A stretch of DNA of 34,880 nucleotides. Origin: Microbacteriaceae bacterium. GTDB taxonomy: Bacteria; Actinomycetota; Actinomycetes; Actinomycetales; Microbacteriaceae. Made by a program: the position numbers and the translations under genes. The stretch spans positions 1 to 34,880 of the forward strand of contig JBIISS010000001.1 in assembly GCA_044340895.1 (NCBI GenBank). Direction: 5' to 3'. Numbering within the stretch: the first letter of the stretch is position 1; each line of letters opens with the position of its first letter. The notes under the pieces are model-generated. The model saw nothing but the letters and a program-made list of their open reading frames with translations, had not been told where the DNA came from and searched no databases. Below are positions 6,473-20,693 of the stretch, piece after piece.

Positions 6473-7329
6473 TCGATCAAACGATTGTTGACGAGGTGGT
6501 TGCGGCCGCCCTGCGCGAAGACGCTCCGTGGGGAGACGTCACGAGTGAGTACCTCATTCCGGTCGACGCGACCGCGGTGGCAACCCTGACTGCTCGCGAG
6601 CCAGGCGTGTTCGCGGGCGCAGCTGCGTTTGAGGCAGCCTTCACGTTGACCGACCCTCGCGTGCACGTTGAGTGGGAGGTTCGTGAGGGTGCGCGATTCG
6701 TCGCGGGCGACGTTCTTGCACGGGTGAGCGGACCAGCGCGGGCAGTGTTGACCGGCGAACGCATCGGACTGAACTTTGCCCAGCGCATGTCGGGCATCGC
6801 CACACTCACGGCCGAATACGTAGAGCTCATCGCCGGCACAAAAGCAGTCATTGCCGACACCCGTAAAACCACGCCAGGCCTTCGCGCATTCGAACGTCAC
6901 GCTGTGGTGTGCGGCGGCGGGCGAAATCACCGCTTCAGCCTCTCCGACGCGGTGATGGCAAAAGACAATCACCTGGCCGTGCTCACCGCAGGTGGCAAAG
7001 ACCTGACCACCGAACTCGCCCGCGTTCGCGCTGAACTCCCACACACCATGAAACTAGAAGTCGAGGTTGACCGCCTCGACCAGATTGAGCCCGTGCTCGC
7101 CGCCGGCATCGACATCATCATGCTCGACAATTTCTCGCTCGCTGATTTGATCACGGGCGTCACACAAGTTGCCGGTCGCGCAATTGTCGAAGCAAGCGGG
7201 GGCGTGAACCGCGAGACCGTGCGCGCCATCGCAGAAACCGGGGTCGACGTGATCTCGATTGGTGCCCTCACGCACAGCGCGCGTGCCCTCGACCTCGGCC
7301 TCGACGTCGTCATCACGCCCGGAGTATAG
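6469..7329 (+). CDS. nadC: Nicotinate-nucleotide pyrophosphorylase (carboxylating)
   Basis: 286 aa with ERIGLNFAQRMSGIAT, DTRKTTPGLR, AVMAKDNH and IMLDNF. The start overlaps the nadB stop (ATGA 6469-6472). Confidence 0.92.
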   Translation: MIDQTIVDEVVAAALREDAPWGDVTSEYLIPVDATAVATLTAREPGVFAGAAAFEAAFTLTDPRVHVEWEVREGARFVAGDVLARVSGPARAVLTGERIGLNFAQRMSGIATLTAEYVELIAGTKAVIADTRKTTPGLRAFERHAVVCGGGRNHRFSLSDAVMAKDNHLAVLTAGGKDLTTELARVRAELPHTMKLEVEVDRLDQIEPVLAAGIDIIMLDNFSLADLITGVTQVAGRAIVEASGGVNRETVRAIAETGVDVISIGALTHSARALDLGLDVVITPGV

Positions 7330-7350
7330 CGAGCGCGACGCCTGACGCCC

Positions 7351-8553
7351 ATGATCTATCTCGACCACGCCGCCACGACACCCGTTTTCCCGGGGGCACT
7401 AGAAGCCGCCTGGCCGTGGCTCACCTCAGAATTCGGCAACCCGAGCAGCACGCATGAGCTCGGCGGGCGCGCATCCACAGCGTTGGCGGATGCGCGACGC
7501 ACCGTCGCCACCTGGCTCGACGTCTCGGCGCACGAAGTGGTCTTCACCTCGGGCGGCACCGAAGGCGACAACCTGTGCGTGGTGGGTCTTGCGCTCGCCA
7601 ACCCGCGCGGCAAACACATCGTCTCGGCGCGCACCGAGCACGAAGCGGTTCTGCAGTCAATCGACTATCTGCAGCGCATCCACGGGTTCGAGGTCACCTG
7701 GTTAGCCGTCGATGAGACCGGCGCGATTGACTTGGCCCAACTTGACCCGGCGAATGAGGCGAGCGCACTGCGCCCCGACACCACGCTCGTGACACTGATG
7801 GTTGCCAACAACGAAATCGGCACGATTCATCCGATTGCCGAGATTGCCGAGCGAGCGCATGCTGTCGGCGCACTGATGCACACCGACGCCGTGCAAGCCG
7901 CCGCGTGGCTCGACATTCGCCCCACGGTGGCTGGCTCGTACACGTTTGGCGTGGATGCGCTGACAATATCTGGGCACAAACTCGGCGCACCCAAAGGCTC
8001 AGGTGCGGTGTACCTGCGCGCCGGTCTTGCCGTCGAACCGACGATGCACGGCGGTGGTCAAGAGGATGCTCGCCGATCGGGCACAGAAAACATTGCCTGG
8101 GCAGTTGCGCTGGCAACCGCAATCGAACGCACCGTTCCGCGCGGCGCCGAACTGACCGCCGAGGCCGCTCGCGTTTCCGGGCTCACCACGACGTTCATTC
8201 AGGAGGTGCTTGCCGGGGTTCCCGAGGCTCGGCTCATGGGCGCGCGCGCATCCGACCCGACTCGCCTGCCGTCGATTGCCTCGTTCGTCTTCGATGGGCT
8301 CAACGGCGAGACGATTCTGCTCGAACTTGAAGAGCGTGGCGTGGTTGTCTCTAGCGGTGCCGCATGTGCGGCCGGCAAAGACGAACCGTCACACGTGTTG
8401 CGTGCATGCGGATTCTCTGATGACACCGCACGAACACAGGTTCGGTTTAGCCTCGCCCACACCACGACTGCCGACGACGTTGCGGATGCAGCTCGAGCAA
8501 CCATCGCAGCGACGGCGTCCGTGCGAAATCTTCGCCCGGGCGCGAACGCGTAG
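7351..8553 (+). CDS. Cysteine desulfurase (NifS/IscS-like, class V aminotransferase), last gene of the NAD operon
   Basis: 400 aa. It has the PLP-lysine motif SGHKLGAPKGSGAVYLR and the active-site loop VSSGAACAAG. Its position matches the desulfurase linked to nadA in Corynebacterium (nadS) and Bacillus (nifS). Confidence 0.88.
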   Translation: MIYLDHAATTPVFPGALEAAWPWLTSEFGNPSSTHELGGRASTALADARRTVATWLDVSAHEVVFTSGGTEGDNLCVVGLALANPRGKHIVSARTEHEAVLQSIDYLQRIHGFEVTWLAVDETGAIDLAQLDPANEASALRPDTTLVTLMVANNEIGTIHPIAEIAERAHAVGALMHTDAVQAAAWLDIRPTVAGSYTFGVDALTISGHKLGAPKGSGAVYLRAGLAVEPTMHGGGQEDARRSGTENIAWAVALATAIERTVPRGAELTAEAARVSGLTTTFIQEVLAGVPEARLMGARASDPTRLPSIASFVFDGLNGETILLELEERGVVVSSGAACAAGKDEPSHVLRACGFSDDTARTQVRFSLAHTTTADDVADAARATIAATASVRNLRPGANA

Positions 8554-11758: not shown

Positions 11759-12076
11759 CTAACTCGCGCGCGACAAGTATTCGTCGAGCGAGTCGAAGTA
11801 GCTCTCCATACCCGCCTTGGTCTGCGGAATCTGTTCGGCGGGCATCTCACCGAACTGCGTGAACTTGCACCACGACGTGGCGCCCCGCTCCTCGAACTCG
11901 ACGCGAATGATGTGCACCGGAACGTCCTCGTTGCGTGCCACAAACCCGTCGGCGTCTTGCGTGTAAGCCAGCGTGTGCACGAGATGATCGTGCAACTGCA
12001 CCTCAACGCAGGCATTCCAGAGGGTGGCCAGTGTTACCGGATATTCGCGCTCGACGGAGTAGAGGACATTGTTCAC
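11759..12076 (-). CDS. Short SRPBCC/AHSA1-like domain protein
   Basis: 105 aa with a GTG start. The pattern REYPVTLATLWNAC....VHIIRVEFEERGATSWCKFTQFG...AGMESYFDSLDEYL resembles the ends of Aha1/SRPBCC domains. It is about 40 aa shorter than usual members. Confidence 0.5.
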   Translation of the reverse strand: MNNVLYSVEREYPVTLATLWNACVEVQLHDHLVHTLAYTQDADGFVARNEDVPVHIIRVEFEERGATSWCKFTQFGEMPAEQIPQTKAGMESYFDSLDEYLSRAS

Positions 12077-12127
12077 GCGGAAAGCTTACGGCCACGTCTC
12101 CCTTCGGAGCGGAATCGCCGAGTGTGT

Positions 12128-12871
12128 TTAGCTGCCCTGAGTGCGCGCAAGAGTGATGAGCCGCTCGACGTGCGTGGCGAGAGCGAAATCGCCGAACTTT
12201 TTCGCCTCCGGTGACTCTGCCGAGGGCGCGTGGGAGCCAGCTGCCCAGACCGCGGCGCCCAGGGTTGCCATTGAAATGGATGTTCCGAGCGCCAGCAGCG
12301 CCTGATCTGACACGTACCGCGAAAGATCTACGTTTTCCTCGGTGAGTTCCTCTGCGAAAACTTCATTGCGCTGAACATCCAGAATGAGTTGGGCCAGGCG
12401 GCACATGTTCAAAGAAAACATCGCGCTCATCTGCTCACGAAAGTCACCTTCGAACTCGACCACGTTCTCGAGGGCAACGTGAGGATAGTTGAGCACGACC
12501 GCCCAGCCAGGAACAGCAACTGCGTAAGTAATCTGCGTTTCGATCCAGGCGCGCAGGCGTGCTTCGGGTGTGCGTTCAGCCTGAGCGACCGCATCCCCCA
12601 TCGCCGCGATGTAATGGGCATAAACCGTAAATGTGGCCTCGGCGATAAGTCCTGCGCGGGAGCCGAAGTAGTGATTCACCATGGCGACGGTCACACCGAG
12701 TCGGCGAGCGAGCTTTGCGTGGCTGAACTGTGCTGGGCCCAGGCGAGCAAACTCGTGAATGGTCAGGTGAAGAAACTTGTCGCGGGTCGACGGGTTACCG
12801 TCGCCACACACGGAAAGCCAGAAGGCCTCATCTAAGTTCTTGGGTTCACCGGCGGGTTGGATGAGCTTCAC
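12128..12871 (-). CDS. TetR/AcrR-family transcriptional regulator
   Basis: HTH segment LHLTIHEFARLGPAQFSHAKLARRLGVTVAMVNHYFGSRAGL. The track ORF opens at TTG 12919. I prefer GTG 12871, which has GGAAGG six nt upstream. Confidence 0.8.
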   Translation of the reverse strand: MKLIQPAGEPKNLDEAFWLSVCGDGNPSTRDKFLHLTIHEFARLGPAQFSHAKLARRLGVTVAMVNHYFGSRAGLIAEATFTVYAHYIAAMGDAVAQAERTPEARLRAWIETQITYAVAVPGWAVVLNYPHVALENVVEFEGDFREQMSAMFSLNMCRLAQLILDVQRNEVFAEELTEENVDLSRYVSDQALLALGTSISMATLGAAVWAAGSHAPSAESPEAKKFGDFALATHVERLITLARTQGS

Positions 12872-13015
12872 GTCACACCTTCCCGTCTCTGGCAACTCTG
12901 AGCGACAAATACTCCGCAATCCTAGCGTTTTGCCCTGAACATTAACGAGAACTGGCGACCGTATGCTCGAGGTAGAGAGCTGACCTCAAGCTCACCCAAA
13001 CGGTCGGAGGCCACG

Positions 13016-13303
13016 ATGTACACAGCGAAATGGAATGGTGCGGTCATCGCACAGTCCGACAAGACGATTGAAATCGAAGGCAACCAGTATTTTCCGTTTG
13101 ACAGTGTTGAACGTGAGTTCCTCGTCGATTCAGCAACGACGTCGACGTGCTCATGGAAGGGCGAGGCAAACTACTACTCGCTCGACGTGAACGGCGATGT
13201 GAACACCGACGCGGTGTGGGTCTATCGTTCACCGAAAGACGCTGCGAAAGAGATCGCGAATTACGTCGCTTTCTGGCGCGGCGTAGAGGTCACGCGCGCC
13301 TGA
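13016..13303 (+). CDS. DUF427 domain protein
   Basis: 95 aa, with GGAGG at 13006-13010. The sequence ..IEIEGNQYFPFDSVEREFLVDSATTSTCSWKGEANYYSLDVNGDVNTDAVWVYRSPKDAAKEIANYVAFWRGVEV matches the DUF427 pattern I know. Confidence 0.8.
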   Translation: MYTAKWNGAVIAQSDKTIEIEGNQYFPFDSVEREFLVDSATTSTCSWKGEANYYSLDVNGDVNTDAVWVYRSPKDAAKEIANYVAFWRGVEVTRA

Positions 13304-13318
13304 CGTTCGCGCAACTTT

Positions 13319-13352
13319 CCCAATGATTCAATCTGCCCAATGATCCAATTTG
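13319..13352 (+). repeat. 17-bp tandem direct repeat spanning the ABC ATPase start codon
   Basis: CCCAATGATTCAATCTG (13319-13335) and CCCAATGATCCAATTTG (13336-13352) match at 15 of 17 positions. Each copy carries an ATG (13323 and 13340). Confidence 0.85.
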
Positions 13353-14056
13353 ATCGCGTTTCGAAACGGTACGGCGACACCGTCGCGCTGAACGATTTTT
13401 CGTTGACCGTGCCCACGGCCAAAATCACGGTGTTGATGGGGTTGTCGGGATCCGGCAAGACGACAGCCATACGCTCAGTCAACAAAATGGTCACGCCGAC
13501 CTCCGGCTCGGTGAGCATCGACGGCGTTGACGTCGCCGAACTCGATGCCGTCACGTTGCGTCGCCGCATTGGTTACGTCATGCAAGAGGTTGGCCTTCTC
13601 CCGCACAAGACTGTGCTCGACAACGTCACGCTGATTGCGCGAATTGCCGGCCAATCGCGCGAGACCGCTCTTCGCAATGCGCACGAGATGCTCGCCATGG
13701 TCGGGACCGGCGAAACGTTCTTTTCTCGCTACCCCCACCAACTCTCCGGCGGCCAGCAGCAACGCGTGGGCGTGGCCCGTGCCTTGGCCACCAAGCCGAA
13801 CATTTTGCTGATGGATGAGCCGTTTGGCGCCGTCGACCCCATCGTGCGCGAAGAACTCCAAGATGAGCTGATGCGCATTCAACGCGACCTTGGGCTGACC
13901 ATCATGTTCGTGACTCACGACCGCCACGAAGCAGTGAAAATCGCCGACCAGTTGGTCGTGCTCTCAGACGGCGGGTACATCGAACAGTTCGGCACACCAG
14001 CCGAGCTCACCAAAAAACCGGCCAACGATTTCGTTCGAAAGTTGTTGGGCGTCTAG
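13340..14056 (+). CDS. ABC transporter ATP-binding protein, osmoprotectant (Opu/ProV-like) type without CBS domains
   Basis: 238 aa. Walker A GLSGSGKTT, signature LSGGQQQRV, Walker B ILLMDEPF. It ends right after the NBD. Confidence 0.9.
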   Translation: MIQFDRVSKRYGDTVALNDFSLTVPTAKITVLMGLSGSGKTTAIRSVNKMVTPTSGSVSIDGVDVAELDAVTLRRRIGYVMQEVGLLPHKTVLDNVTLIARIAGQSRETALRNAHEMLAMVGTGETFFSRYPHQLSGGQQQRVGVARALATKPNILLMDEPFGAVDPIVREELQDELMRIQRDLGLTIMFVTHDRHEAVKIADQLVVLSDGGYIEQFGTPAELTKKPANDFVRKLLGV

Positions 14057-14697
14057 TGGAGTGGTTCGTTGCCAACTGGAGCTTCATTGCCGGGCTCGCG
14101 TGGACCCACCTGAGCATCTCGATTCCGCCGATCATCCTCGGGTCAGTTATTGCGATTGTGATGGCTCGGGTGATACCTGCGCGGTTTGTCACGCCCACGC
14201 GCACAACCTTGGGGGCGATTTACGCGATTCCGTCGCTCGCCTTGTTCGTCGTGCTTCCCGCGGTTCTCGGAACCAAGTTCATCGGGCCGACAAACGTGAT
14301 CATCGCGCTCACGATCTACGCCATCACCTCGATGTACTTTTCGGCACGGGATGCGTTCAGTCAGGTTCCGGTCGCAACCATGACGACATCGCGCGCACTC
14401 GGCATGAATTCGCGCCAGATATTTTTGCACGTAGAACTCCCCCTCGCCGTGCCCGGGCTCATCTCCGGCTTGCGTGTCGCGGCGGCCAGCACCATCTCGA
14501 TTGCGTCGATTGGCGCGGTCGTTGGCGTACGCAATCTCGGCTACCTGTTTATTGACGGATTCCAACGCAAGATTCCTGAAGAAATCATCTCGGGGCTCGT
14601 TGCCATCAGCGTCATTGCCTTAGCCCTTGATGTGGGCCTGTGGCTGCTCGGGCGAGCGATGACTCCGTGGCGCAACGCAAAGGTCGCTCGTGCTTGA
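14056..14697 (+). CDS. ABC transporter permease (OpuCB/OpuBB-like)
   Basis: 213 aa BPD-type permease. The start overlaps the upstream stop (TAGTG at 14054-14058). Confidence 0.85.
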   Translation: MEWFVANWSFIAGLAWTHLSISIPPIILGSVIAIVMARVIPARFVTPTRTTLGAIYAIPSLALFVVLPAVLGTKFIGPTNVIIALTIYAITSMYFSARDAFSQVPVATMTTSRALGMNSRQIFLHVELPLAVPGLISGLRVAAASTISIASIGAVVGVRNLGYLFIDGFQRKIPEEIISGLVAISVIALALDVGLWLLGRAMTPWRNAKVARA

Positions 14698-15376
14698 CGT
14701 CGGCGGTCTCGGCGCGTGGTTCTCTGACGCCGCAAACTGGACGGGCCGATACGGGCTCGTGAACCTTCTGGGTGAGCACCTGTGGCTCACGTTCGTGTCG
14801 ATCGCTCTCGCCTCACTCATCGCCGTGCCGCTTGGCCTCTTTATTGGGCACACCGGTCGTGGCGAAGTTTTCGTGGTCGGTCTGGGCTCGCTGTCTCGGG
14901 CCATTCCCACGATGGGGCTCTTGTTCGCACTCGTTTTGTTGTTGGGCGTGGAGTTTCGCGAATTGTCTGTTGTGCTTGCCTTGGCCGTCATCGCGTTGCC
15001 GCCACTCATTGCGGGCGCGTATTCGGGTGTGGCGAGCATCCCGCCGTCAATTCGTGACTCGGCTACCGCACAGGGCATGACCGCGTGGCAACTCGTGCGA
15101 CACGTCGAACTGCCTCTGGCGAGTCCGTCGATCATCGGTGGGTTTCGCATTGCGTTCATTCAGGTGGTGTCGACCGTGGTGCTCGCGCCGCTTGTGGGCC
15201 TCGGCGGTCTCGGGTTCGGAATCATCCAGGGACTGGCTCTGCGGAATTTTGCCCAAGTTACCGCGAGTTCACTCGTGATAATCGCGCTCACCATCACCGG
15301 CGAACTTCTTTTGGGTTCTTGGCAACGACGTGCGGCGGATAGATTGGGCACACCGACGAACTTGGAGAAACCATGA
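14690..15376 (+). CDS. ABC transporter permease (OpuCD/OpuBD-like)
   Basis: 228 aa, a second BPD-type permease. It overlaps the upstream gene by 8 nt. Confidence 0.85.
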   Translation: MLDVGGLGAWFSDAANWTGRYGLVNLLGEHLWLTFVSIALASLIAVPLGLFIGHTGRGEVFVVGLGSLSRAIPTMGLLFALVLLLGVEFRELSVVLALAVIALPPLIAGAYSGVASIPPSIRDSATAQGMTAWQLVRHVELPLASPSIIGGFRIAFIQVVSTVVLAPLVGLGGLGFGIIQGLALRNFAQVTASSLVIIALTITGELLLGSWQRRAADRLGTPTNLEKP

Positions 15377-16248
15377 AGCTCAAACGATTTACCGCCCTTG
15401 CGCTGAGCGCCGGACTGTTATTGGGTGTCGCCGGATGCGCATCCACCGCCGAACCCTCAGCCGACCCCATCGTGATTGGGTCGCAGGCCTACTACTCGAA
15501 CGAAATCATCGCCGAAGCGTACGCGCAGGTGCTCGAAGACGCCGGCTTCTCGGTCGAGCGTCAGTTCTCACTCGGACAGCGCGACGTTTACATGCCCGCC
15601 ATTGAGGCCGGCGAAATCGACTTGTTCCCCGAGTACACCGGCAACTTGTTGCAGTACTTCGTTCCCGAAGCGACCGAGACGACGGCAGATGACGTGTACG
15701 CAGCTCTTGCTGCCGCACTGCCCGCGGGCTTGAGCGCGCTGGCCATGTCGCCGGCAACCGACCAGGATTCATACAACGTGACTGAGGAATTCGCCACGGC
15801 GAACAAGCTCACGTCGATTGCTGATCTCGCCGCGCTGAAGGATCTCAAACTCGGCGGAGCTCCCGAGCTTGCCGAGCGCCCGTATGGCCCGAAGGGTCTG
15901 CTTGAGAAGTACGGCGTCACCGTGACCTTCGAAGCAACCGGCGACACGACGGTCGACTCTCTCGTCGCAGGTCAGGTCAGCCTGGCCAACGTTTACAGTG
16001 CCGACCCTCGCATTTCGCAGCTGAAGCTCGTCACGCTGAGCGATCCGCTGGGGCTTTTCTTGGCCTCGAACGTGGTGCCCATCGCATCGGACTCCGTCAC
16101 TGCAGATGCCCGCGCACTGATTGATGCCGTTTCGGCCGCTATGACACCTGCCGACCTCGTTGCACTCAACGTGCGCAGTGTCGAGGAGAAGCTCTCGGCT
16201 TCGGTCATCGCTCGCGACTGGCTCGTATCGAAGGGTCTGCTCAAGTAG
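15373..16248 (+). CDS. Glycine betaine/choline-type ABC substrate-binding lipoprotein (OpuAC fold)
   Basis: 291 aa with lipobox LLLGVAGC. The sequence IVIGSQAYYSNEIIAEAYAQVLEDAGFSVERQFSLGQRDVYMPAIEAGEIDLFPEYTGNLLQYF is typical of OpuBC/OpuCC-like binding proteins. The start overlaps the upstream stop (ATGA). Confidence 0.85.
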   Translation: MKLKRFTALALSAGLLLGVAGCASTAEPSADPIVIGSQAYYSNEIIAEAYAQVLEDAGFSVERQFSLGQRDVYMPAIEAGEIDLFPEYTGNLLQYFVPEATETTADDVYAALAAALPAGLSALAMSPATDQDSYNVTEEFATANKLTSIADLAALKDLKLGGAPELAERPYGPKGLLEKYGVTVTFEATGDTTVDSLVAGQVSLANVYSADPRISQLKLVTLSDPLGLFLASNVVPIASDSVTADARALIDAVSAAMTPADLVALNVRSVEEKLSASVIARDWLVSKGLLK

Positions 16249-16262
16249 AGCGTCTGTTCACC

Positions 16263-16304
16263 GCACGAGGGCGAGCCACGGAAATCGTGTGCTCGCCCTC
16301 GTGC
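16263..16304. terminator. Bidirectional terminator hairpin between convergent genes
   Basis: GCACGAGGGCGAGC (16263-16276) pairs with GCTCGCCCTCGTGC (16291-16304). This is a perfect 14-bp stem with a 14-nt loop. Confidence 0.7.
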
Positions 16305-16339
16305 TGTGCCTGTTGCGGTATGTCACCGCGAGAATGGTT

Positions 16340-17062
16340 CTAACTCCGTGCCAAGCGACGGCGCGTAACCGTGACCGCGAGTGCACCGGCCATGAGCAGG
16401 CCTGCGCCGAGTGCTATTGACCCAGAATTGACAGAGGCGTTGGTGCCGGTGTCTGCCAGCAATGAACTGTCACTCGTCGGATCTGCCACAGGCGCGTCAT
16501 CGACGTAGGTCGTGAAGCTAATCCCATATGCGGGCTCAATAAACGCGAATCCAGCCACCCTCTTGTCGGGGGGAGAAAATCCCAGGGCAAGCATCATCCC
16601 GGCATTGCTTGAGGCTGAAGAGAGCGGAAACTCAAGAGTAAAGACATAGCCCGTTCCCGCGACGACTGTTGCAGGAGATGAGAACAAAACTGAAATTGTT
16701 CCTCCGCTCACGAGAGAGGCGGCGGGAATAACCTGCGTTGCAATCGCGGAGCCGGTGGGAAACCCAGTAACGGCATCGACGTTCCACACGTTCACGGTGA
16801 GGTCGGCCGGAGTCGTGTGTCTGATTGTTGGTATATCGATAGACGTTAATCGCCCAGAGATTCCAGCGGTAAAGGTGGACCCTTGAACTTGACACTGAGG
16901 ATTGCTCGACATGTCTACGTAACAGCTCACTGCTGCTTCACCAGCAGCAGTGACCGATTGAGTCTGATCAACTACCGGTGCGGCTATAGCAGGGGATGCC
17001 CCGGCGCAAACCAATGCGAAAGTGATCGCGAGAGCGGCCAGTGGTGCGAACTTCTTCTCCAC
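16340..17062 (-). CDS. Secreted cell-wall-anchored surface protein (LAxTG sorting signal)
   Basis: The track ORF extends to 17164. I prefer GTG 17062, which gives the signal peptide VEKKFAPLAALAITFALVCAGASPAIA. The C-terminus has LADTG, a hydrophobic stretch and RRRLARS. The passenger domain is unrecognised. Confidence 0.7.
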   Translation of the reverse strand: MEKKFAPLAALAITFALVCAGASPAIAAPVVDQTQSVTAAGEAAVSCYVDMSSNPQCQVQGSTFTAGISGRLTSIDIPTIRHTTPADLTVNVWNVDAVTGFPTGSAIATQVIPAASLVSGGTISVLFSSPATVVAGTGYVFTLEFPLSSASSNAGMMLALGFSPPDKRVAGFAFIEPAYGISFTTYVDDAPVADPTSDSSLLADTGTNASVNSGSIALGAGLLMAGALAVTVTRRRLARS

Positions 17063-17133
17063 GTTGACATCCAATCTTGAGGGTAAACACTCAAACCCTA
17101 TCGAACGGAGCCGGCCCGAACACAGCTCGGCGT

Positions 17134-17162
17134 TGCTAGACGTTGAAGCGGAACCAGACCAC
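17134..17162 (-). repeat. Relic copy of the ychF 3' end (direct repeat, copy A)
   Basis: TGCTAGACGTTGAAGCGGAACCAGACCAC matches 19609-19637 at 27 of 29 positions; the first 21 nt are identical. On the minus strand it reads ..WMNVVWFRFNV*, with an in-frame TGA at 17172-17174, so it is non-functional. Confidence 0.85.
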
Positions 17163-17455
17163 ATTCATCCATCAAAGAACATCTTCCACTCCGGCGACAA
17201 ACAAACTCAATCTCGGATGTCTATGGCAAGAAATTTGGTGGAGTCTTGAAACACGGCTCTGAGCCATGGCGAATTGCTCTAAGCGCCCGCCCCCCAAGCG
17301 ATGAGCTCCTCGCGACCGTCGATGCCAAATTGTCGACTCGCACACAAAGGATGGCTCGGGGTAAAGCAAAAGGTCGCGCTGCTCGGTGGCGCAATGATTT
17401 CGATGAACCGGTTGCTGCGCTCACTCGGGTAAAGAAGTTTCGCTCCGAAGCCTGC

Positions 17456-18268
17456 CTAATGCGCCAGTTTGGTGACCATTGCCGAGATTGACGTGACGTC
17501 AACCACCGAGTGAAGGTCGTCTTGGTCGACGGCGACATAGGCGTGACCCAGGTCGTGGGCAAGATCTCGGAAGAGAAACCGCACAGATGATGGCGTCGTG
17601 CGGGGAAGGATTTCGATGCTTGAACTTCGCGCGGGCATCCACACCATGTTCGCCAGTCCGGCTCCATGTTGGGCGACAAGCACTCCCGTTCGCGACATCA
17701 TCTCGACTTGATCGCGGGGTGCCATGTTCTCGCCGCGAAAGACACCTACGGGAGTTACTTCGTTTAGCGCCCGAAACAGCTCATCGGAATTGGCGATCGA
17801 CCGTCGGGCCGTGCCTGCCGTCAGGTTCTCCGCTTGGGTGTCGAAGAAGGGATGTCCGGGCAGGCGCTCAATCAGGGTTGTCGCACCCTCACCCGGTATC
17901 ACACCTAGGCCTAATCGTGACCTCACACGAGCACAAGCTTGGCGAATCTGCGATCGACGTCGGCGTCCCTTATTCTCCAGGGTGGGCAGGAGCACAAGAG
18001 GCGACCTGAACGGGTTCGATGGCGAAGCTCGGAGCGACTCGATTTCTTGCTTCGGAACTATGTCGACGCGCACGTTATCTGGGAGCACGTCGAACCACAC
18101 GTTCATCGGGCCGCAGTCCCGAACGACGATGTGGTTCGAGCCAGACCGGGCAACGTGACGTTCAATCGGCAAAAAGTAGCTGAGGAGAAAATGGTAAAAG
18201 TGCTCGACGGAGGAGCCAGCGTTGGGCATCTGCGGCAGGAGAATGTGTGGTTGCCGTGTGCGTCGCAT
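17456..18268 (-). CDS. Glycosyltransferase family 61 (DUF563) protein
   Basis: 270 aa with no signal peptide or TM segment. The N-terminus has EHFYHFLLSYFLP. The C-terminal block RRSIANSDELFRALNE..ENMAPRDQVEMMSRTGVLVAQHGAGLANMVWMP..SIEILP...FLFRDLAHDLGHAY fits the GT61 pattern (R.I.N..E....E.....EQV.....G.HGAGL.N..F...E..P). Confidence 0.7.
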   Translation of the reverse strand: MRRTRQPHILLPQMPNAGSSVEHFYHFLLSYFLPIERHVARSGSNHIVVRDCGPMNVWFDVLPDNVRVDIVPKQEIESLRASPSNPFRSPLVLLPTLENKGRRRRSQIRQACARVRSRLGLGVIPGEGATTLIERLPGHPFFDTQAENLTAGTARRSIANSDELFRALNEVTPVGVFRGENMAPRDQVEMMSRTGVLVAQHGAGLANMVWMPARSSSIEILPRTTPSSVRFLFRDLAHDLGHAYVAVDQDDLHSVVDVTSISAMVTKLAH

Positions 18269-18377
18269 GATTGGGCAAGTTTAGAAGATGCGACGGAGTC
18301 GCACTGCCGAAACGTGTAGACCCACTAAACGTCAAAGCGGGACTCGACGACGTTCAATCCTGGAAAACTTTTGCCCC

Positions 18378-19511
18378 TCAAGCGCGCGCAAACCGGCGAC
18401 GCGAAACCGCCATGACGGTCACGCCCGCACCGACAAACACCGCGCCGAGTGTCAACAACGTCAGGAGCTGCCCGCTGACATTGCCTGTATCAGGGAGCTG
18501 GGCCGGCTCGCTCACCACATAGACGAAGCTGCCACCCGTAATCCAAAACTGATCTGCAACAGGATTGCGATCAAGCAAGTACCAACCGCCTGGATTCGCA
18601 GTCGTTACATCAATGGGATCTCCGGCGTCAAAGGTCGTTGTATCCGTAGGGATGAGGTCGCCAGACGACGGGCTAAAGATATAGGCCAGGCGCCCATCGA
18701 CACTAAAGGCAACATCTTTTGGCTCATCGGTGAAGACATGTTCTGTCGCAAGGGTCGCCGTGTTGATGACCGTGGTAACTGTGGGAGACATCGAGAACGA
18801 CGTCACATATACCTTCGCCCCATCCGGTGAGATCGCGATCGTTGTGCCCTGAAGGTGATCTGTCGGAATCAACGAGTCGATTACCGTGTTAGTTGCGGTG
18901 TTGATGACAACAAGGGAGCCGTCAGAACAATTCACGAACACCTTCATCCCGTCGGGGGAAATAACGAGACCAGTCGGGCCGCCGCACGGGGAAATCGTCG
19001 TGACCACGGTGTCGCTCGCTACGTCAATAACCTTGACATCGGTTCCCGATCCGTTGTTTGTCGCCGCAACATACGCGCGCTCGCCGTCCGGGGTGAATGC
19101 AATTTGACCGACCCCCGAAGTTCCTACAGTGATTGGCGAGCCGAACGTGAGACTCGACGGAGAGAAAGGCAAGACCTTACCCTCGCCAAGGCTGAGGTAC
19201 GCCTTCTGACCATTTGGAGCCATGGCTATCGAATGGGTCACGCCGGCGCAGACGATGCCCGTCGAGAGCGGGTCCCCCACGCGCAACAGAGTCTTGGTGT
19301 CAACGACAACAAGTGAGCAGTCGCCCTCCAACATTCCACTTTCGTTTTGCACGACGTAGGCAAGTGACCCGTCGGGGGAGAACGCGACGCCCGAAGTGCC
19401 GAAGAATCCCTCGAGGGAGCTGACGACGGATGGGCTCGCTTGCGCTGCTGGAGCAGCCGCCAACACGGACATTGCCACGACAAATGTGGCGGCCAGAGCC
19501 TTGAACTTCAC
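18378..19511 (-). CDS. LPxTG-anchored YVTN-type beta-propeller repeat surface protein
   Basis: 377 aa. GTG start with AAGGAG (rc of 19518-19523). The signal peptide is MKFKALAATFVVAMSVLAAAPAAQA. The repeats are GVAFSPDGSLAYVV, SIAMAPNGQKAYLS, QIAFTPDGERAYVA, GLVISPDGMKVFVN, TIAISPDGAKVYVT and DVAFSVDGRLAYIF. The C-terminus has LPDTG, a hydrophobic stretch and RRRFARA. Confidence 0.8.
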   Translation of the reverse strand: MKFKALAATFVVAMSVLAAAPAAQASPSVVSSLEGFFGTSGVAFSPDGSLAYVVQNESGMLEGDCSLVVVDTKTLLRVGDPLSTGIVCAGVTHSIAMAPNGQKAYLSLGEGKVLPFSPSSLTFGSPITVGTSGVGQIAFTPDGERAYVAATNNGSGTDVKVIDVASDTVVTTISPCGGPTGLVISPDGMKVFVNCSDGSLVVINTATNTVIDSLIPTDHLQGTTIAISPDGAKVYVTSFSMSPTVTTVINTATLATEHVFTDEPKDVAFSVDGRLAYIFSPSSGDLIPTDTTTFDAGDPIDVTTANPGGWYLLDRNPVADQFWITGGSFVYVVSEPAQLPDTGNVSGQLLTLLTLGAVFVGAGVTVMAVSRRRFARA

Positions 19512-19608
19512 GGAATTCTCCTTCGCACGTGGCTTAAGCGACCAATCCCCTAAAGCCTAACCGTCCAGGGTGCGCGTCTGCTGAGATGACGCGCGTCGTC
19601 TAACCGGA

Positions 19609-19637
19609 TGCTAGACGTTGAAGCGGAACTCGACCAC
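19609..19637 (-). repeat. Direct repeat copy B (the functional ychF 3' end and stop)
   Basis: TGCTAGACGTTGAAGCGGAACTCGACCAC encodes ..VVEFRFNV* of ychF. See copy A at 17134-17162. Confidence 0.85.
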
Positions 19638-20693
19638 GTCGCCATCGTTCATGACGTAGTCCTTGCCCTCCATGCGGGCCTTGCCCTTGGCGCGAGCCTC
19701 GGCGACCGAACCGGTCTCGACGAGGTCGGCGAACGAAATGACTTCGGCCTTGATGAAGCCCTTCTCGAAGTCGGTGTGGATGACACCGGCAGCCTGCGGA
19801 GCCTTCCAGCCCTTGCCGATTGTCCAGGCGCGCGACTCCTTGGGTCCGGCGGTGAGGTAGGTCTGTAGTCCGAGCGTGTCGAAGCCAATGCGTGCGAGCT
19901 GGTCGAGGCCCGACTCGGGCTGACCGGTTGAGGCCAGAAGTTCCGCCGCGTCCTCGGCGGAGAGGTCGATGAGTTCACTCTCGAGCTTGGCGTCGAGCAA
20001 CACAGCCTTGGCCGGAGCAACGAGGGCTTCAAGCTCGGCGCGCTTGCCGGCATCCGACAGCACGGCCTCGTCGACGTTGAACACGTAAAGGAACGGCTTG
20101 GCGGTCAGCAACCCAAGTTCACGAATTGGGGTGATGTCGACCTTGCTCGCCGAAAGCGGGGTGCCCGAGTCGAGCACCGCACGCGCCTCTTCGAGCGTCT
20201 CGAGAACAACTGGCTCAGCCTTCTTCGCCTTGACCTCTTTTTCGATGCGGGAGTGCGCCTTCTCGATGGTCTGCAGGTCGGCCAAAATCAGCTCGGTGTT
20301 GATGGTTTCCATGTCGCTCTTGGGATTGACCACACCGTCGACGTGAACAACGTCGGGATCGGCGAATCCCCGAACGACCTGTGCGATTGCATCCGCCTCG
20401 CGAATGTTCGCGAGAAACTGGTTGCCCAATCCCTCACCCTCGCTCGCGCCCTTGACGATGCCGGCGATGTCGACGAACGATACGGCAGCGGGCAGGATGC
20501 GCTCGCTGCCGAAAATCTCAGCAAGCACGTTCAGGCGGGCGTCGGGGAGGTTGACCACACCCACGTTCGGCTCAATCGTGGCGAACGGGTAGTTCGCAGC
20601 GAGCACCGAGTTCTTCGTGAGTGCGTTGAAAAGGGTCGATTTGCCGACGTTGGGAAGTCCGACGATGCCGATAGTAAGAGCCACGAGGGTCAA
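19611..20693 (-). CDS. ychF: Ribosome-binding / redox-regulated ATPase YchF
   Basis: Motifs GIVGLPNVGKSTLFNALT, DIAGIVKGASEGEGLGNQFL, and the C-terminal TGS-like GKDYVMNDGDVVEFRFNV. The track start is TTG 20693. GTG 20684 (VALTIGIVG) is more likely. Confidence 0.93.
   Translation of the reverse strand: MTLVALTIGIVGLPNVGKSTLFNALTKNSVLAANYPFATIEPNVGVVNLPDARLNVLAEIFGSERILPAAVSFVDIAGIVKGASEGEGLGNQFLANIREADAIAQVVRGFADPDVVHVDGVVNPKSDMETINTELILADLQTIEKAHSRIEKEVKAKKAEPVVLETLEEARAVLDSGTPLSASKVDITPIRELGLLTAKPFLYVFNVDEAVLSDAGKRAELEALVAPAKAVLLDAKLESELIDLSAEDAAELLASTGQPESGLDQLARIGFDTLGLQTYLTAGPKESRAWTIGKGWKAPQAAGVIHTDFEKGFIKAEVISFADLVETGSVAEARAKGKARMEGKDYVMNDGDVVEFRFNV

Follow-up and report, generated by a model that had tools for sequence, protein, structure and literature searches.

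Analysis of a 34,880-nucleotide stretch from a Microbacteriaceae bacterium (GenBank assembly GCA_044340895.1, contig JBIISS010000001.1, positions 1 to 34,880; the whole stretch is called the window here) suggests that the 3' end of ychF, the gene of a redox-regulated ATPase, was used repeatedly as an integration site. Directly downstream of ychF lies a 3.3-kb islet of three cell-surface genes, subdivided by two degenerate copies of the last ychF codons. We consider it likely that the islet accreted by serial insertion of cassettes at the ychF 3' end by large serine recombinases (LSRs) and that it persists as a recombinase-less array.

Copies of the ychF 3' End in the Window

The 21-mer TGCTAGACGTTGAAGCGGAAC is present exactly twice in the window, on the plus strand with starts at 17134 and 19609, whereas 0.00 occurrences are expected from shuffled sequences, and the two 29-mers that begin with it (copies A and B) are identical at 27 of 29 positions. 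The duplication that a preliminary description of this DNA had pointed out is therefore not due to chance. Copy B is, as proposed there, the 3' end of ychF, whose product matches Pfam MMR_HSR1 and YchF-GTPase_C, and it reads DGDVVEFRFNV-stop. Copy A reads stop-WMNVVWFRFNV-stop on the minus strand, which confirms it as a relic cut off by the in-frame TGA at 17172-17174. A mismatch-tolerant scan and a repeat finder revealed a third, diverged copy (relic M, 18323-18355) between the two genes that separate copies A and B. Relic M is identical to copy B at 23 of 30 positions, reads NVVESRFDV-stop and belongs to repeat family D1; in its last eight codons three of the five differences are synonymous third positions, suggesting that it was once part of a functional ychF allele. 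A model of the site family described below recognizes copy B with an nhmmer E value of 1.5e-8, relic A (copy A) with 9.6e-5 and relic M with about 1e-3. The spacings between the three copies are 1286 and 1189 bp, so that the unit is one gene and not a 2.4-kb two-gene block; the single insert first envisaged between two copies gives way to three copies, three single-gene units and an insert of 3.3 kb.

In the list that follows, P and B denote the attP- and attB-type halves of a predicted site on the two sides of a central GT, whose position in copy B was obtained from the family alignment and the offset test. From ychF to the native flank the features are:

19611..20684, minus strand: ychF, redox-regulated ATPase (Pfam MMR_HSR1 and YchF-GTPase_C)
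19609..19641, minus strand: copy B, live ychF 3' end, putative proximal B/B'-type site (predicted GT 19633-19634)
18378..19511, minus strand: cassette 1 cargo, LPXTG-anchored beta-propeller surface protein (Pfam DUF5074, beta-propeller and Gram_pos_anchor)
18323..18374, minus strand: relic M, putative hybrid P/B' site (right arm 18323-18355, left arm 18349-18374, predicted GT 18347-18348)
17456..18268, minus strand: cassette 2 cargo, GT61-domain glycosyltransferase open reading frame (ORF) (Pfam Glyco_transf_61, 5.7e-12)
17376..17431, plus strand: remnant of an FAD amine oxidase, convergent, last 17 codons and stop (blastn and tblastn)
17134..17185, minus strand: relic A, putative hybrid P/B' site (right arm 17134-17166, left arm 17160-17185, predicted GT 17158-17159)
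16340..17074, minus strand: cassette 3 cargo, secreted LAxTG-type surface protein (signal-peptide and sorting-signal features read from the sequence)
16316..16339, no strand: distal insert junction, 24 nt between the LAxTG stop codon and the native flank (alignment with L102)
16259..16308, no strand: native flank, bidirectional terminator-like hairpin (inverted repeat I2, 18-nt arms, 94% complementary)
15373-16248, plus strand: opuAC, convergent (Pfam OpuAC)

Pfam bears out the content of the interval between copies A and B as first described, namely a GT61-domain ORF and the gene of an LPXTG beta-propeller protein. The GT61 ORF is 270 aa long as a mechanical ORF and only 148 aa long in the public gene calls of conspecific contigs, and only positions 68-134 of 137 in the Pfam profile, its C-terminal end, are matched. 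Truncation or decay of the gene is possible. No family was matched by the LAxTG protein in a Pfam search. The amine-oxidase remnant matches over 46 nt at 95.7% identity in blastn, and in tblastn it matches residues 456-472 of 473 with 88% identity (E 1e-3).

An Empty Site in a Close Relative

Ten conspecific contigs (L090-L099) encode an identical YchF and have the same arrangement as the window, and the islet is fixed in the sampled population. In L102 (YchF 97% identical) the ychF stop codon is followed by 3 nt and then by the hairpin and convergent opuAC, in alignment with the window from 16315 down to 16232. Because L102 joins the ychF stop codon directly to the opuAC-side flank, the insert is 16316-19610 and includes the LAxTG gene. 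Together with the shared arrangement of the ten conspecific contigs, this joint makes copy A an internal junction rather than the outer boundary. An empty site had been anticipated with ychF joined to the flank at 17133 and the LAxTG gene left outside, beyond copy A; the joint at 16315 corrects both points, the LAxTG gene being absent from the empty site.

Other relatives carry other DNA in this place. In L100 (YchF 99% identical) a convergent amine-oxidase gene lies directly next to ychF, with UbiA and others following, and homology to the window resumes at 12004; in L104 (95%) the propeller gene is next to ychF; and this gene is absent in L100, L101 and L102. Across the Microbacteriaceae, whose YchF proteins are 84-86% identical to that of the window, synteny is conserved upstream of ychF and nothing is conserved downstream, with the break exactly at the stop codon. 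Comparison of window 12005-19614 with L100 5913-9163 shows that the 7.6 kb between ychF and the MMPL/nad block (TetR, the opuA ABC operon and the three-gene islet) is swapped for a different 3.25 kb (amine oxidase, UbiA, AHSA1 and others). As the whole 7.6 kb is replaced, the flexible region is larger than the scar-bounded islet.

The islet also stands out in composition. Its GC content is 0.572 against 0.611 for the rest of the window, making it the lowest 3.3-kb stretch there, and its three genes have the lowest third-position GC content (GC3) and codon adaptation index (CAI) in the window. The values are 0.66 and 0.59 for the propeller gene, 0.65 and 0.56 for the GT61 ORF and 0.56 and 0.47 for the LAxTG gene, compared with 0.74 ± 0.04 and 0.69 ± 0.04 (mean ± standard deviation (S.D.)) for 23 core genes. 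The LAxTG gene, already suspected of low GC, is the most atypical gene in the window, lying 4.6 and 5.4 S.D. below the core genes. The islet is thus lowest for GC, GC3 and codon adaptation alike; the contrast is real but modest, and the lower GC first reported for the interval stands in direction while being far smaller than hand counts had suggested.

Architecture of the Site Family

Alignment of sites of this kind from other genomes and metagenomes gave the consensus CAGAGGTTnnTCGGCTACGGAAC-GYG/GT/SGA-GTTCCG-nTT-CAACGTnTAG (slashes mark the central GT). About 25 nt to the left of the ychF-like part are conserved and not derived from ychF, and the inner motif CGGAAC is the complement of GTTCCG, which lies in the Glu-Phe-Arg codons. 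Some copies are perfect palindromes around the GT, such as CCGGAACTCG-GT-CGAGTTCCGG, and perfect 10-bp arms are found in L054 and L081. When the two halves of 18 relics were compared in an offset test, the inner motifs matched at offset 0 (0.62) and the distal motifs only at +5 bp (0.55 as against 0.17-0.31 at the twelve other offsets), the one in the left arm lying 5 bp farther from the center, and GT was the central dinucleotide in 14 of the 18. In LSR sites the motif bound by the zinc-ribbon domain is 5 bp closer to the crossover in attB than in attP (PMC3783163). The +5-bp distal offset and the central GT correspond to this half-site geometry, which identifies the copies as probable hybrid P/B', attR-type scars, and the class of recombinase can be named provisionally, from site architecture, as that of the LSRs. 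The copies keep the ychF reading frame and stop codon, and their differences are mostly synonymous.

The two window relics were compared with this family using left-arm (P-arm) matrices built from either 43 metagenome sites or 17 genome sites and scored at the register fixed by the stop codon. The left arm of relic A falls in the top 0.05% of window positions with the 43-site matrix and 0.25% with the 17-site matrix, and that of relic M in the top 0.2 and 2.2%, respectively; the left arm of ychF itself ranks only at 7-9%. In both relics the match to ychF begins at ACGTSGTC, and a P-type GAAY replaces the CGAC of ychF, as in LSR-type sites. Judged by their sequences, relics A and M are degenerate members of the same P/B' family, with degraded dyad symmetry.

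Several minor features of the sites were noted. A 16-nt match to the relic-type core, AACGTGGTCGAGTTCG, occurs at 12452-12467 on the minus strand, the strand of ychF, inside a TetR-family ORF in the frame ENVVEFEG (nhmmer E 0.0066) and within the part of the window that differs from L100; chance or a very old scar may account for it. Many sites are doublets, with a second copy of the right arm, lacking the stop codon, 0-20 nt after the first (e.g. GTAG-TTCCGGTTCAACCTCTGG); such doublets are present in L059 (+633, +2499 and +3308), L022 (+1213/+1236), L056 (+2883) and L002 (+40). The distal motif of the second copy is the exact complement of CAGAGGTTG in the left arm, and this copy could be an idealised B' half-site or the residue of an earlier right arm. 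Single sites gave heterogeneous folds in RNA-type folding, and this approach was discarded, as was the inner-palindrome pattern as a probe of viral contigs, where all 7 matches were unrelated hairpins or coding sequence. A blastn search of phages and plasmids with the site consensus found no LSR element; it recovered a Nocardia array and the Streptomyces satellite phage MulchRoom, to which we return below.

Distribution and Cargo of the Arrays

Loci of ychF from 80 actinobacterial species were searched with each genome's own 27-nt ychF end. There were 42 matches downstream on the ychF strand and one each upstream (+), upstream (-) and downstream (-). With a hidden Markov model (HMM) of the site, 15 of the 80 species yielded 26 sites, every one of them downstream of ychF and on its strand. 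Scanning metagenomes for the left-arm pattern added 65 loci, of which 62 contain complete sites; ychF, where present, is always upstream on the same strand as the sites, and the site HMM detects 148 sites on that strand and none on the other. The preliminary description had allowed for a dispersed repeat at unrelated loci, an idea at odds with copies that lie almost exclusively downstream of ychF on its strand. More broadly, a chance repeat, a repeat family or a structural element such as a terminator, unrelated to recombination, might be invoked from the inverted repeats of the sites, which can fold as hairpins, and from unrelated hairpins that match the inner palindrome alone; with no matches expected, with the confinement to one strand downstream of ychF, with the ychF frame and stop codon retained and with partners that switch at the core, this explanation is effectively refuted.

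The sites form arrays in Salinibacterium, two Demequina species, Microbacterium, Brevibacterium, Psychromicrobium, Rothia and Nocardia, and 10 kb can contain as many as 6 sites. The median distance from one site to the next is 1296 bp (interquartile range 870-2296, n = 112), and the spacings in the window sit at this median. The units are accordingly compact (median 1.3 kb, 62% of them at most 1.5 kb), and most are without an LSR gene; the window represents three units with two internal sites. Their cargo includes ParDE, HigBA and HepT/MNT toxin-antitoxin pairs, a glyoxalase, TetR with an aldo-keto reductase, McrBC, DUF6414, DUF5677, SelO, ArsR with a P-type ATPase, and an AadA-like nucleotidyltransferase.

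Two cassettes illustrate this cargo. A HigB/HigA cassette with the conserved leader TAGcgttattgacgc..cgttata..gtgatca follows sites in Microbacterium, Brevibacterium, Demequina, Nocardia and several metagenome contigs (L014, L075, L078, L054 at +5743, L081 at +5342, L131, L133, L147, L160 and L177), at varying array positions and sometimes ahead of an aspartate/ornithine carbamoyltransferase-like gene. In L177 a cassette of roughly 1 kb (654-1553 in original coordinates, minus strand) in an LSR-associated array encodes an AadA-like aminoglycoside nucleotidyltransferase (AadA_C, 5.6e-19), and the neighbouring unit carries ArsR with a P-type ATPase; such resistance-type cargo resembles that of integron cassettes.

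LSR Genes at the Sites and Partner Switching at the Core

An initial tblastn probe, Bxb1 integrase, was too insensitive: it missed every LSR in the first sets, including that of L026, and later gave only a weak match to the LSR of L177. It was replaced by the LSRs of L118 and L026. L118, from a set of viral contigs that begin at ychF, is a 5.9-kb element with a 458-aa Resolvase plus Recombinase protein encoded 28 bp from a relic, and with the L118 LSR as probe an intact LSR gene was found 19 bp from a relic in L026 (Microbacterium sp. 1154). L177, a metagenome contig, encodes a 515-aa LSR whose start codon falls where a canonical left arm has its distal edge; three more sites follow downstream. 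Decayed forms occur as well. The Demequina globuliformis array has a 35-aa LSR remnant adjoining a degenerate relic, and LSR pseudogene fragments are located inside the arrays of L066, L137, L145, L167 and L171, being frameshifted or fragmentary beside sites in the last four. In NCBIfam the nearest families are CcrB and XisF; the LSRs of the ychF sites score 62.6 and 60.3 bits with CcrB (cut-off 900) and 44 and 68 bits with XisF (cut-off 375), values that indicate generic LSR similarity only; they are, on these profile scores, LSRs and not Ccr proteins.

The complementary junction is present in L109, L113, L119, L026 and L118, where the ychF end has an 8-nt spacing (GTTCCG-N8-CAACGTCTG) and the YchF C terminus is altered. 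The YchF C termini that follow VVEFR across genomes, namely FNV, FNN, HS, HG and FNL before the stop codon, fit such a junction altering the end of the protein. In L028 (+665 and +1442), a Microbacterium metagenome-assembled genome (MAG), ychF ends in FRHS-stop, and a downstream copy reading QDGDVVEFRHG-stop with the ychF left arm (an attL-type duplicate) precedes a normal P/B' scar that ends in FRFNV-stop, suggesting that attL-type junctions can also be displaced downstream.

Pairs of loci reveal exchange at the predicted crossover. Left of the central GT, L176/L171, L170/L173 and L131/L182 show 99-100% identity, which extends through all 400 nt compared in the first two pairs and through the only 46 nt available in the third; right of the GT, identity drops to the background level (0.16-0.27) after 6-13 nt. 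In L160/L147 the right side is kept and the left side switched. This partner switching at the GT implies that cassettes have been linked with more than one partner, at joints no more than about 20 nt from the predicted crossover.

Serial Insertion as the Proposed Origin of the Islet

We propose that the last roughly nine codons of ychF act as attB for a family of LSRs, with crossover at a central GT that makes up positions 1 and 2 of the second Val codon in DGDVVEFRFNV. Each integration would leave a downstream scar in which the element-derived left arm (P) is joined at the GT to the then-current ychF end (B'), and would rebuild the ychF end from the right arm of the incoming element. Repeated insertions would push older units downstream into a same-strand array. 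In the window this would account for the order of ychF, propeller, GT61 and LAxTG units, split by relics M and A, up to the opuAC terminator. LSRs would then have made both window scars, in the order of events just given, and the proximal site may still be competent for re-insertion; the islet itself would now be passive DNA, or at most mobilisable in trans. The family-wide site architecture supports the original idea that the copies are att-type scars of integration at the ychF 3' end, and among the explanations first listed the evidence favours repeated accretion at one hot spot.

A number of observations weigh against this proposal. With the LSR probes, neither an LSR gene nor a remnant of one could be detected in the 35-kb window, a permissive tblastn yielding noise only; no tyrosine recombinase or Phage_integrase gene is detectable there either, consistent with the preliminary report of no recombinase in or near the interval. 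The left arms of the window relics are degenerate, and it is only with the ychF-like part that the alignment to the full site HMM begins. Under a simple serial model a ychF relic is expected at the distal junction (16316-16339), where alignment and the site model show none; a hidden relic at that junction or at the 3' end of the GT61 ORF was considered and rejected, none being seen in alignments. Relic A has the amine-oxidase remnant on its ychF side, an arrangement not predicted by simple integration into an L100-like ancestor. Tyrosine-integrase elements also target the ychF end (L080, L105, L107 and MulchRoom). Finally, canonical LSRs recombine only attP with attB, hybrid sites requiring a directionality factor (PMC3783163), and they leave an attL that alters the YchF C terminus, as in L026 and L118; genomes with arrays, the window included, keep the native FRFNV end with B'-type spacing and no altered C terminus. 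Two explanations offer themselves: an incoming right arm that closely imitates B', for which L171 is an example (its right arm encodes EFKFNVS-stop and is followed by an LSR gene), or enzymes that tolerate hybrid sites, as Ccr recombinases are reported to do.

Possible Import by Homologous Recombination

Rather than having been built in this lineage, the array may have been imported ready-made or in blocks by homologous recombination, with ychF as the left anchor and other homology on the right, in which case the scars would be older and donor-made. Homology with relatives stops exactly at the ychF stop codon, and relatives with 95-99% YchF identity differ downstream (amine oxidase and UbiA in L100, opuAC in L102, the propeller gene in L104). 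The amine-oxidase remnant in unit 2 points to L100-like source DNA, the distal junction is free of a relic, and the right arm of relic M ends GTT-TAG, as do the ychF alleles of L101 and L102, where this genome has GTC-TAG. A further case is L025, a Salinibacterium MAG, in which a displaced second YchF C-terminal domain (19235-19840, a 201-aa ORF, YchF-GTPase_C 1.2e-38) preserves the 3' half of ychF (600 bp) 8.1 kb downstream of the real gene, just past a convergently oriented McrBC system; this duplication is too long for a 50-bp att site and suggests homologous or illegitimate events at the hotspot. Import explains the arrival of the scars but not their origin, and so complements serial insertion. 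No donor with the same array was found, and the ten identical conspecific contigs show no intermediate. Given the position of the amine-oxidase remnant on the ychF side of relic A, block import anchored on ychF probably contributed.

Active Cassettes and a Capture Platform as Possible Readings

Another reading, which we regard as rather doubtful, is that the units are active recombinase-less cassettes shuffled in trans by an LSR encoded elsewhere, with the hybrid P/B' site as substrate, in the manner of integrons or SCC elements. It draws on the compactness of the units, on identical cassette ends joined to different partners exactly at the core, on the same HigBA cassette in different genera at different array positions, on cargo typical of cassette systems (toxin-antitoxin pairs, a glyoxalase, an AadA-like enzyme and McrBC) and on the native ychF end in genomes with arrays. 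The LSR pseudogene fragments inside arrays, however, imply that at least some units are decayed full elements; canonical LSRs are inactive on hybrid sites without a directionality factor (PMC3783163); and the window sites are degenerate in an array that is invariant in ten contigs.

Extended to the phylum, and advanced here only tentatively, this reading would make the ychF 3' end the capture platform of an LSR-run, integron-like cassette system across Actinomycetota, with trans shuffling of units through hybrid P/B' sites. The right arm of an incoming cassette would regenerate both the YchF C terminus and a competent attB, and insertion would be repeatable without limit. If true, this would need an LSR that breaks the rule of attP by attB only, without a directionality factor, and the three surface-protein genes of the window would be a quiescent array of the system.

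Tyrosine Integrases at the Same Gene End

It is improbable that the two window scars were left by tyrosine-integrase elements, although such elements do use this gene end. Tyrosine integrases adjoin ychF-end repeats in Amycolatopsis (L080) and in the viral contigs L105, L107, L110, L111 and L114, and MulchRoom carries the last 13 ychF codons. The left boundaries of these repeats, (A)GTTCCG in L107 and L080 and 42 nt to ATGCAG in MulchRoom, differ from those of LSR-type sites, whereas identity to ychF in the window relics starts at ACGTSGTC and is accompanied by the P-type GAAY; nor is there a Phage_integrase gene in the window.

In MulchRoom (L082, OQ784832) the 42-nt copy of the Streptomyces ychF 3' end (MQDGDVVEFRFNV and stop) occupies 7336-7379, in an unannotated gap about 70 bp from the tyrosine integrase gene (6514-7269), and is very probably attP. 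The paper describing this phage makes no mention of an attachment site. IMG/VR contigs L116 and L117 look like integrated relatives of MulchRoom, since their post-ychF sequence matches its right flank.

Comparison with Known Systems

By analogy, the nearest known system to the arrays appears to be the SCC/ECC cassette chromosome, from which they differ in target gene, phylum, recombinase clade and unit size. Tandem composite islands and ccr-less pseudo-SCC units are known, and the ychF arrays are likewise tandem and include recombinase-less units bounded by att repeats. In SCC/ECC elements LSRs insert at attB in the 3' end of a conserved housekeeping gene, the end of which is regenerated, and the att repeats are about 50 bp long with dyad symmetry; recombinase-less remnants have attL in the gene and attR downstream (PMC6222049). 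Unlike SCC/ECC, the target here is ychF and not rlmH, the hosts are Actinomycetota, a single LSR that is not a Ccr protein takes the place of the CcrAB pair, the units are much smaller (median 1.3 kb) and the core is unrelated, with GT within GTGGTSGAGTTCCG as opposed to TATCATAA.

The sites also resemble those of phage and integrative-element integrases (Bxb1, phiC31 and A118/LI) in their length of 40-50 bp, their imperfect palindromes around a central dinucleotide and the integrase gene beside attP, and share with phage large serine integrases a distal motif 5 bp closer to the center in attB-type halves (PMC3783163). In canonical systems, however, one attL/attR pair is left with no re-insertion at attL, whereas here scars accumulate as arrays and the native gene end persists at the proximal site. 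LSR-encoding pipolins of Actinomycetota, for which ychF is listed as an integration site from gene context, agree with the arrays in target gene, recombinase class and phylum (PMC11551731); that paper describes no att sequence, scars or arrays. No piPolB gene turned up in the loci studied here, among which no search aimed at piPolB was made. In literature searches on arrays or accretion at ychF we found nothing, and the gene-context statement on pipolins was the only prior mention of the gene as an LSR target (PMC11551731).

With integrons (sedentary chromosomal integrons and CALINs) the arrays have in common small same-strand cassettes, mostly of one or two genes, with structured imperfect palindromes between them; as in integrons, the cargo is of toxin-antitoxin, defence and resistance type, and arrays without an adjacent integrase exist. 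Inspection of the alignments shows no attC boxes (RYYYAAC ... GTTRRRY), the outer arms GAGGTTG ... CAAC(C/G)TC having the opposite polarity. The sequence in common with the platform gene is about 27 nt long, compared with about 7 nt in integrons, and the geometry fits a double-strand serine-recombinase site better than a folded single strand. A XerD-probe tblastn detected no IntI-type tyrosine recombinase within 10 kb of ychF in array loci, nor is there one in the window. An integron/attC reading is ruled out by box polarity, shared-core length and the lack of IntI. To our knowledge the site bears no resemblance to dif, and an Xer/dif reading was set aside. Site-specific accretion at a gene 3' end, with internal att sites and recombinase-less modules, is familiar from CIME accretion and from modular islands (PAISt, at the bacA 3' end), systems that differ in having tyrosine recombinases, other target genes and much larger modules.

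Under the serial-insertion model the islet, which varies among strains and is low in GC, would consist of accreted foreign cassettes that carry three cell-surface genes, with boundaries at 16316-19610, and the nearly invariant ychF end is a likely shared landing pad in Actinobacteria for at least two recombinase classes. As the array architecture is readable, a simple sequence rule could delimit flexible islands beside ychF. The arrays, which carry toxin-antitoxin, defence, metal-resistance and AadA-like cargo, would also provide a natural collection of attB/attP pairs belonging to one clade of serine integrases, of interest for genome engineering, and they pose the question of how a serine integrase system accumulates hybrid sites with attB intact, a situation so far documented mainly for SCC elements in Firmicutes.

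Other Observations around ychF

The start codon of ychF may be GTG at 20684 or TTG at 20693; the public gene call is a 360-aa form. Upstream of the gene, relatives carry a MazE/PemK toxin-antitoxin pair between DUF6186 and ychF (L101 8979-9616 and the equivalents in L102 and L103) that the window is without, and L101 has a HipBA module and DUF4417 further upstream. These toxin-antitoxin insertions indicate that the side upstream of ychF is not entirely static.

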